64,000 bases of DNA from Octopus vulgaris (lineage: Eukaryota). The stretch lies in assembly GCA_951406725.2 (NCBI GenBank), contig OX597832.1:14260001-14324000 (forward strand), read 5' to 3'. The notes under the pieces were generated by a model. It was given only the letters and a program-made list of their open reading frames with translations, was not told where the DNA came from and searched no databases. The position numbers were made by a program, and so were the translations under genes. Position 1 is the first letter of the stretch; each line of letters begins with the position of its first letter. Shown piece by piece: positions 48,785 through 49,622 of the stretch.

Positions 48785-48790
<6 letters not shown>

Positions 48791-49618
48791 AAGGGTGAAA
48801 TTAATTAATTTGGAATAGATTTCCCACGTCCGTAGGTAACTTAAAATTGTATGTGGGATTGCCGTCATTTCATTCTTTCTTTCTTACCTGTCTGTGTTTG
48901 CCTTTCAAGTGCTGTGTTTTTACTGAGATCCCCCTTTTAGTAGAAGGAATAGCTATATCTCTTTGACTGCTATTTCTAAATTCGGTGTGTTGGTGAGGCA
49001 ATTCGTTGCTAAAACCTTAATTACTTAGTATTACTTAAATTTTCCTCGAATGAGGCTTTTACATGCCGAAATCTACTTGGTGTAATTGATAATTATTCCA
49101 AATTAATTAATTTCACCCTTTATTATTACTGCTAACCATATTTTATTCCAGTAAATGACCGCAGCATTTTGTCTTGGCTACACGCGGGTGGAAGGGGGCT
49201 GGTGACACAAACTTTCATTCAAACTTTGAATTTCGTGGTACTGGTCATGCTTTGGCTCGCTCTGACACTGAGTTGAGATAATGCCTTCTAATATCTCAAA
49301 ATTTAATATACAATTATTCATAATTGTAGTATCCTGCGCCGATGAGAAAAGAAGTTTGGGTAAAGTAGGATTTTCTAATTCTTATGCTCTCCTAAAACTT
49401 GATTTCGAAAGTACGTCCGCAGGTAACTTAAAATTGTATGAGGGATTGCCGTCATTTCATTCTTTCTTTCTTACCTGTCTGTGTTTGCCTTTCAAGTGGT
49501 GTGTTTTTACTGAGATCCCCCTTTTAGTAGAAGGAATAGCTATATATCTTTGACTGCTATTTCTAAATTCGGTGTGTTGGTGAGGCAATTCGTTGCTAAA
49601 CCCTTAATTACTTAGTAT

Positions 49619-49622
<4 letters not shown>
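48785..49622 (+). mobile_element. Retrozyme/Penelope-like non-coding element: 587-bp period partial tandem plus 33-bp inverted segment
   Basis: Near-identical direct repeats 48826-49035 and 49413-49622. Perfect inverted repeat 48785-48817 / 49094-49126. HHR-like fold at 49333-49423. (TA)n on both sides. Confidence 0.75.
49333..49423 (+). ncRNA. Type I hammerhead-like motif with ~60-nt stem II
   Basis: cctgcg-CCGATGA-gaaa..aagtttggg..cctaaaactt..tttc-GAAA-gtac-GTC|cgcagg: perfect 6-bp stem I and GUC triplet. It has a U4>C substitution and lacks the C after GAAA. Confidence 0.55.

Follow-up and report, generated by a model that had tools for sequence, protein, structure and literature searches.

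A multicopy non-coding 587-nt repeat of Octopus vulgaris with Penelope-type insertion marks and a predicted type I hammerhead whose stem II spans 61 nt

Introduction

Animal non-LTR retrozymes are described as tandem non-coding units that carry type I hammerheads and are expressed as circles of 170-400 nt (Cervera and de la Pena 2020, PMC7229834). Li, Clavereau and Pollet (2026, bioRxiv 10.64898/2026.07.22.740005) have argued that retrozymes represent non-autonomous elements derived from Penelope-type elements (PLEs), with consensus lengths of 51-972 bp; in the published test given there, 1 of 9 predicted retrozyme dimers was cleaved. Insertions of EN+ PLEs are marked by a partial tandem, an inverted 5′-truncated copy, and a (TA)n bias (PMC8557442; PMC3846280), palindromes have been reported at the inverted junctions of Penelope elements (PMC3846280), and Craig et al. 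(2021, PMC8557442) list a (TA)n preference for Naiad and Hydra families of octopus. Type I hammerheads of PLEs and of metazoans have been described as acting as dimers with a palindromic stem III (PMC4209133), and copying of more than one unit from a circle was proposed earlier (PMC4209133; PMC7761336).

Several described hammerheads depart from the compact form. The core search of Craig et al. admitted only 7-17 nt between the two core boxes, and the same source describes eight Naiads with “half cores” lying 35-50 nt apart (PMC8557442). ASBVd is reported to be without clearly delimited helices I and II (PMC6155905), and 235 Rfam hammerhead hits are given for the giant squid genome as a count with no detail in that account (PMC6962438). 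The literature that we searched on octopus and cephalopod hammerheads, retrozymes, Penelope elements, and long stem II regions contained no description of the family reported here, which may be catalogued in Repbase or Dfam. The origin of animal retrozymes as non-autonomous PLE derivatives is already published, and the length and anatomy of the 587-nt octopus repeat lie within this known kind; its long stem II is the variant. What it adds is a predicted hammerhead shape that escapes standard searches.

Results

The window analyzed here is a 64-kb stretch of Octopus vulgaris contig OX597832.1 that is AT- and microsatellite-rich. At positions 48785-49622, a first-pass annotation had described near-identical direct repeats of about 210 bp, making up about 1.36 units of a 587-bp monomer, with a perfect 33-bp inverted copy of an internal segment at the left end, the whole inserted in (TA)n and bearing the insertion signature of Penelope elements. 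Each of these features was recovered. The direct repeats, at 48826-49035 and 49413-49622 on the forward strand, are identical at 205/210 positions with a spacing of 587 nt. The first is a pLTR-like partial unit that contains, of the predicted ribozyme, only the triplet at the cut site and the 3′ strand of stem I, and the second reaches into (TA)n; the unique, non-coding part of the monomer lies between them (49036-49412, forward strand). The monomer has a GC content of 36%, and its predicted fold has a z score of −3.0, with 1 of 100 shuffles as good. The (TA)n target microsatellite runs along both ends, at 48710-48787 on the left and 49622-49702 on the right. The inverted piece (48785-48817, reverse strand) is the perfect reverse complement of 49094-49126, a forward-strand template that contains a 14-nt AT palindrome (49100-49113). 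No exact inverted match at the left end of this copy is longer than these 33 nt (E of 3e-11), and they stand head-to-head with the main copy, with their 3′ end toward (TA)n. Partial tandem, inverted piece, and (TA)n were thus all seen. The element had also been called recently inserted; because 5 of the 210 repeat positions already differ, the insertion is better described as fairly recent and not brand-new.

An older sister copy was found at 18291-19100 on the reverse strand. It comprises 1.4 units with a period of 576 nt, has its 3′ end in (TA)n, and is 61% identical to the focal monomer over 834 columns, with direct repeats of 234 nt that are 88% identical. The partial tandem forming the pLTR is therefore a feature of both the focal and the sister copy; the inverted 5′-truncated piece at the 5′ end was observed in the focal copy. 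A period of about 580 nt in two lineages only 61% alike indicates that the short unit propagates as such and did not arise by a one-off deletion. An nhmmer profile built from the focal and sister copies detected no third copy in the 64-kb window. Upstream of its hammerhead, the sister copy also forms a hairpin of 7 perfect bp (about 18709-18733, reverse strand), in a part that aligns poorly to the focal monomer.

To survey copies elsewhere, contigs of four public runs (X1, X3, X6, and X19, carrying three organism labels) were aligned to 585 nt of the monomer (49036-49620) at 80% likeness; run X3, which is RNA only by guess, was used for sequence variants alone. All four runs contained matching contigs (1746, 37, 1401, and 24, respectively), most of them less than 99% alike. 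Allele shares are given below as fractions of summed contig depth, which is not copy number, and alleles from these short contigs are mostly unphased. With so many contigs falling on one monomer, a sister copy in the window, and no ORF, the element is multicopy and non-coding, in keeping with the retrozyme-like insertion proposed earlier.

The longest stop-free frame of the unit, counted in the looped monomer, spans 93 codons and has no Pfam match. No RT or GIY-YIG ORF was found in or beside either copy by a Pfam search of 150 of the 174 filtered ORFs of the window, and the single RT match, below the cut-off at 59.9 kb, is far from the element. Neither a long tandem array nor an autonomous partner was seen in the window or the contigs. 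By comparison with PLEs, whose hammerheads lie near the 3′ ends and whose copies are mostly 5′-truncated (PMC4209133; PMC8557442), the repeat could be what is left here, after truncation, of a longer Penelope element with coding capacity, with only its pseudo-LTR end retained, a case that had been set out beforehand as the terminus of a longer coding element. It would be consistent with the absence of any piece covering the whole monomer and, as a weak sign, with the depth profile, in which summed depth peaks over the ~220 nt that precede 49115-49135 and then falls, with a drop in X1 and X6. This profile also points faintly to a favored 3′ zone combined with 5′ truncation. However, the unit closes on itself head to tail in both copies, with periods of 587 and 576 nt that leave no space for an ORF, and no RT or GIY-YIG frame lies nearby. 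The head-to-tail joint was present in 5, 1, 4, and 2 contigs of the four runs, in which contigs are short and no piece spans the unit. The fraction of contigs continuing into unlike sequence was 0 in X1, 0.08 in X3, 0 in X6, and 0.18 in X19, for short contigs and with 23 of 166 loose ends listed. Moreover, no match to the 3′ ends of Naiad_Ovul or Naiad_Obim was found by eye, nor by two 12-mer look-ups in one supplement. We therefore regard a truncated coding element as unlikely. A 10-nt word in common with the Naiad_Ovul 3′ UTR was dismissed as a chance match, being AT-rich, at another distance from the end, and absent from the sister copy.

Additional scans were negative. No tRNA gene was found in the window, and a promoter scan of bacterial type remained at chance level. 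Pattern scans returned 0 loci for the monomer body motif in metagenome contigs and 0 loci in viral contigs; the ribozyme motif gave 2 loci in metagenome contigs, which were rejected as chance matches since both are GC-rich and their similarity is limited to the motif.

The fold proposed for the unit, CCUGCG-CCGAUGA-[61 nt]-GAAA-GUAC-GUC/CGCAGG, is present at 49333-49423 on the forward strand as a predicted type I hammerhead with a 6-bp stem I (49333-49338 paired with 49418-49423) and a predicted cut after 49417. The 5′ core box occupies 49339-49345, and the 3′ core with stem III occupies 49407-49417. Stem II (49346-49406, 61 nt) is predicted to consist of a 4-bp base closed by G10.1-C11.1, a 2x2 internal loop, more helices, and an apical hairpin. 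Around the hammerhead, an extended helix I with internal loops is predicted at 49311-49448. Internal loops are thus predicted in both helices, and AU/UAA lie beside stem I in the focal and sister copies alike. Both stem I and the long stem II are part of the focal minimum-energy structure. The 108-nt hammerhead region has a z score of −2.4 (2/200 shuffles as good), and stem II on its own is modestly stable (z of −1.7; 26/500 shuffles as good). The predicted minimum-energy state pairs the hammerhead core, with the core-open state 2-3 kcal/mol higher, and substituting near-fixed family alleles gives no better overall fold energy (−31.3 against −34.9 kcal/mol). As had been noted, the focal copy carries two core defects: U4 of the 5′ box is replaced by C at 49340, and C15.2 is missing after 49410. 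A search of this defective copy against the Rfam hammerhead models gave no match at E values up to 5 and 10; the other Rfam matches were microsatellite-driven miRNA ones and two weak unrelated ones.

The sister copy carries a decayed counterpart at the homologous place (18582-18664, reverse strand), with a 6-bp stem I, a 54-nt spacer, and GAAAC. Its stem I differs from that of the focal copy by two double-sided changes, its core box has 2 substitutions, and its stem III is a palindrome with a 2-nt loop. The spacer folds as a hairpin, but the base of stem II is unpaired, and one of two alignments placed the sister core out of register. A relaxed descriptor, tuned after both sites had been seen, matched only the focal and sister sites on both strands of the 64-kb window. 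The same post hoc descriptor gave 0.9 matches per shuffled 64-kb window and, in shuffles of the two regions, 5/20000 and 2/20000 matches; as it was written with both sites in view, these numbers are flattering.

Sequence variants in the contigs bear directly on both core defects. Canonical U4 (T at 49340) accounts for 46% (X1), 72% (X3), 80% (X6), and 51% (X19) of summed depth, and C (U4C) accounts for the remaining 54, 28, 20, and 49%. C15.2 after 49410 appears in all four runs among the 40 of 88 variant rows listed. Its listed share is too low because contigs are clipped at this site: of 32 listed pieces, 11 reach it, of which 3 cross with gaps, 8 end there followed by unaligned bases, and none passes through cleanly; the consensus of the loose ends at this site opens with the missing C. 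With C15.2 in place, stem III of other copies is an 8-nt palindrome. The expectation that a consensus would restore both CTGATGA and GAAAC thus held for GAAAC, which other copies have, and only partly for CUGA, which many but not all of them have. On sequence grounds, U4C reads as an inherited trait of a subfamily making up 20-54% of depth, and only the loss of C15.2 looks private to the focal copy, and a reading of both defects as private decay was rejected. The focal copy by itself also differs from nearly all depth at other positions, e.g., 49132, 49147, 49291, and 49499.

Variation was also seen elsewhere in the motif. The anticipated compensatory changes in stem I were observed, with A at 49336 opposite U at 49420 and U at 49333 opposite A at 49423, where the phasing comes solely from equal depths; among the 40 of 88 variant rows listed, X1 mostly has C facing A at the terminal pair. 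The free core position 7 varies between T and A. In stem II, substitutions in the same 40 of 88 rows are confined to the apical part (49364, 49369, and 49373) with none in the basal helices, and one contig has insertions at 49375, 49379, and 49393. Taken across copies, the family carries the predicted type I core, i.e., CUGANGA, GAAA, and an NUH triplet.

These observations can be set against the view that an ordinary repeat happens to fold like a hammerhead by chance. The lack of an Rfam match, the 0.9 descriptor matches per shuffled window, and the modest energy of stem II would agree with such a view. Both real matches, however, fall at homologous positions of sister copies, and variants elsewhere move toward the canonical core at both defective sites, which makes a chance fold hardly credible. 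Because of these canonical-ward variants, the pairing kept in stem I, and the same fold in the sister copy, the hammerhead is likely real.

Whether the ribozyme acts in the copies that spread is a separate matter. A 233-nt X19 contig (record 11) appears, from records and loose ends combined, to join U4C with an intact GAAAC, so a subfamily with a weakened core seems to have spread, which leaves room for the view that cutting is dispensable. The element could then be the same Penelope-type element with a ribozyme that is idle in spreading copies, linear uncut transcripts being copied and the partial tandem arising by a jump between templates or from a tandem donor in the genome. The share of U4C in depth (20-54%), its occurrence with intact GAAAC on at least one contig, and the grouping of 3′ ends described below would all fit, as would the fact that the RT had to pass an intact cut site in both window copies; Naiads, too, are reported to spread without canonical hammerheads (PMC8557442). 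Nevertheless, the core and the stem I pairing are kept in two families only 61% alike and in most of the X6 and X3 depth. U4C itself lowers activity in vitro, yet it has been reported to allow viroid infectivity (PMC3088659). An idle ribozyme is, in our judgment, a somewhat doubtful explanation.

Copy ends were examined next to the predicted cut site. The first repeat had been said to start within 5 nt of this site; this is true of the exact repeat but not of the copy itself. The six leading bases of the junction at 48818-48825 (forward strand), i.e., 48818-48823, which directly follow the inverted piece, equal the homologous 49401-49406, for which reason the focal copy probably begins upstream of the cut site, by about 17 nt, and has lost a small internal stretch. 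This point likely marks the true 5′ truncation of the upstream unit. Similarly, in the consensus built from the loose ends of 5 X6 contigs, (TA)n adjoins position 49400 or thereabouts, so that two copies begin at 49400-49401, and the sister copy begins downstream of the cut site, by about 75 nt. On the 3′ side, the element meets (TA)n at 49622 (equivalent to 49035), at 49126 for the inverted piece, at about 49135 for the sister copy, and at 49610 (equivalent to 49023) in one X3 contig. All four 3′ junctions are AT-rich and 190-305 nt downstream of the cut site, grouped within ~110 nt and not spread all round the circle, and none is at GUC. The idea that copy starts mark or cluster at the GTC cleavage site was therefore abandoned. 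(TA)n was present at both focal ends, at the sister 3′ end, and, among the 23 of 166 loose ends listed, at some from X3 and X6.

The two focal repeats also retain a record of their template. Both have G at 49442, where all depth of all four runs has T, and 3 of their 5 differences are near-private to repeat 2. The shared rare G and these near-private differences suggest that both repeats likely derive from one template and drifted after insertion. Since an end-primed cleaved linear monomer would stop at GUC, we infer that the template was a circle or an internally primed uncut multimer.

A TA-rich target, an inverted repeat, and a partial tandem occur in rolling-circle DNA elements too. The locus might accordingly be read as a DNA-level element, such as a Helitron- or Helentron-derived HINE-like unit or a dispersed satellite, with the inverted repeat as a cis signal and the hammerhead as incidental, and remnants of a Pif1-like helicase do occur elsewhere in the window. 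However, the inverted piece is not family-wide: the sister copy lacks an inverted copy of that segment and has just a weak match of 22 nt (82%) to a different part, and the inverted repeat was rejected as a cis signal of the family. In addition, both ends vary between copies and the hammerhead fold is conserved, and we consider a DNA-level element very unlikely.

Discussion

The reading that we favor, with a probability of roughly 0.65, is that this many-copy non-coding 587-nt repeat is a non-autonomous Penelope-type element, i.e., a non-LTR retrozyme, in which each unit has one predicted type I hammerhead and stem II measures 61 nt. Probably it lives as a small parasite on retrotransposons of the Penelope type. 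Transcription reading through tandem or partly tandem copies would produce multimeric RNA, in which two hammerheads could join by way of their palindromic stem III and cleave after GUC, with the 4-bp base and internal loop of stem II standing in for loop 2. A host ligase would then circularize the unit-length RNA, or part of the multimer would remain uncut. A Penelope-type endonuclease/RT acting in trans may nick (TA)n and prime at AT-rich sites 190-305 nt past the cut site, and copying through more than one round would give 1.4 units. The inverted piece could come from a second short priming event or from self-priming. The focal copy would have its origin in the U4C subfamily, with C15.2 probably lost after insertion; given the weakening by U4C and the loss of C15.2, it is likely dead as a ribozyme.

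In sequence, the element shows the features by which metazoan non-LTR retrozymes are recognized: a non-coding head-to-tail unit with one type I hammerhead, a GC content below 45% (36%), no LTR features seen, and many dispersed copies. At 587 nt, it falls in the reported 51-972 bp range and exceeds the invertebrate retrozymes that have been tested, which measure 170-400 nt. Unlike in metazoan retrozymes, which have a 4-bp helix and a short loop, stem II of the octopus copies measures 54-61 nt, and the octopus copies carry an inverted piece of PLE type. The focal and sister copies each hold one whole hammerhead in 1.4 units, and for this reason they fall outside what the 2026 paper calls active, which takes two ribozymes.

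The element also resembles EN+ PLEs. Their pLTR hammerheads are also sense-strand type I motifs with a palindromic stem III and G10.1-C11.1 (PMC4209133; PMC8557442; PMC3846280), and the partial tandem, the head-to-head inverted 5′-truncated piece, and the (TA)n target are likewise described for them. Unlike them, the octopus element has no RT or GIY-YIG ORF, and the comparison with two Naiad 3′ ends revealed no sequence tie to a named autonomous family. A further difference is that the metazoan PLE hammerheads described have short loops and a 3-8-bp helix II (PMC4209133; Craig et al. 2021). The long stem II region has a partial precedent in the spike-moss elements PLE-X1_sMoe and PLE-X1_sTam (Craig et al. 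2021, File S2), since their core boxes are about 50 nt apart. Those, however, are plant elements with large unpaired loops that are marked as non-canonical in that file, whereas the octopus core is canonical in many copies and its arm is a predicted multi-helix hairpin in two families.

Newt hammerhead motifs have a short stem II. The octopus element resembles both these and the ASBVd hammerhead in a weak stem III and dimeric cleavage, the latter only predicted in octopus. Unlike ASBVd, which is a replicating plant viroid, it is a genomic repeat.

Because both Rfam and a search with 7-17 nt between boxes miss this shape, counts of retrozymes are perhaps too low, and some calls of PLEs without a hammerhead are perhaps wrong. 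A more far-reaching reading, to which we give a fairly low probability, is that active type I hammerheads with a 50-60-nt stem II, missed by Rfam and by short-spacer descriptors, drive high-copy RNA circles of ~580 nt, in which the long arm would replace loop 2 and stall the RT, thereby setting the 5′ truncation, and that the U4C subfamily spread beside the canonical one. If this were true, some PLEs called ribozyme-free or “half core” may conceal a long-armed motif, and the U4C subfamily beside canonical ones would be a natural test of how much cutting a retrozyme requires. Whichever way it falls, the comparison of U4C with canonical subfamilies offers a natural test of whether cutting is needed for spread at all, and the scattered 3′ ends together with the shared rare allele offer one of whether PLE-type partial tandems come from circular templates.

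Other features of the window

A short interspersed repeat, which we take to resemble an octopus SINE, is present in two microsatellite-flanked copies that are 85% alike (49694-49855 and 51171-51332); the first adjoins the 587-nt element and is separate from it. Broken Pif1-like helicase fragments at 2083-4185 on the reverse strand (PF05970, E of 5.5e-17; PF21530, weak) are likely a Helitron remnant. Remnants of non-LTR retrotransposons occur at 59947-60291 (RVT_1, below the cut-off) and 45498-46075, where the frame at 45.7 kb, with no Pfam match, is presumably an RTE-like C-terminal part. A compound trinucleotide microsatellite at 47200-48060 (GAT, GAA, CAA, and GGT) has long low-complexity frames with no sign of a gene. 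At 16830-17470, frames that overlap one another and abound in Arg, Ala, Gly, and Pro, with no Pfam match, suggest a GC-rich island, possibly a promoter or first exon. Finally, two nearby related segments with similar translated frames surround trinucleotide runs at 59184-59815, which suggests a local duplication.
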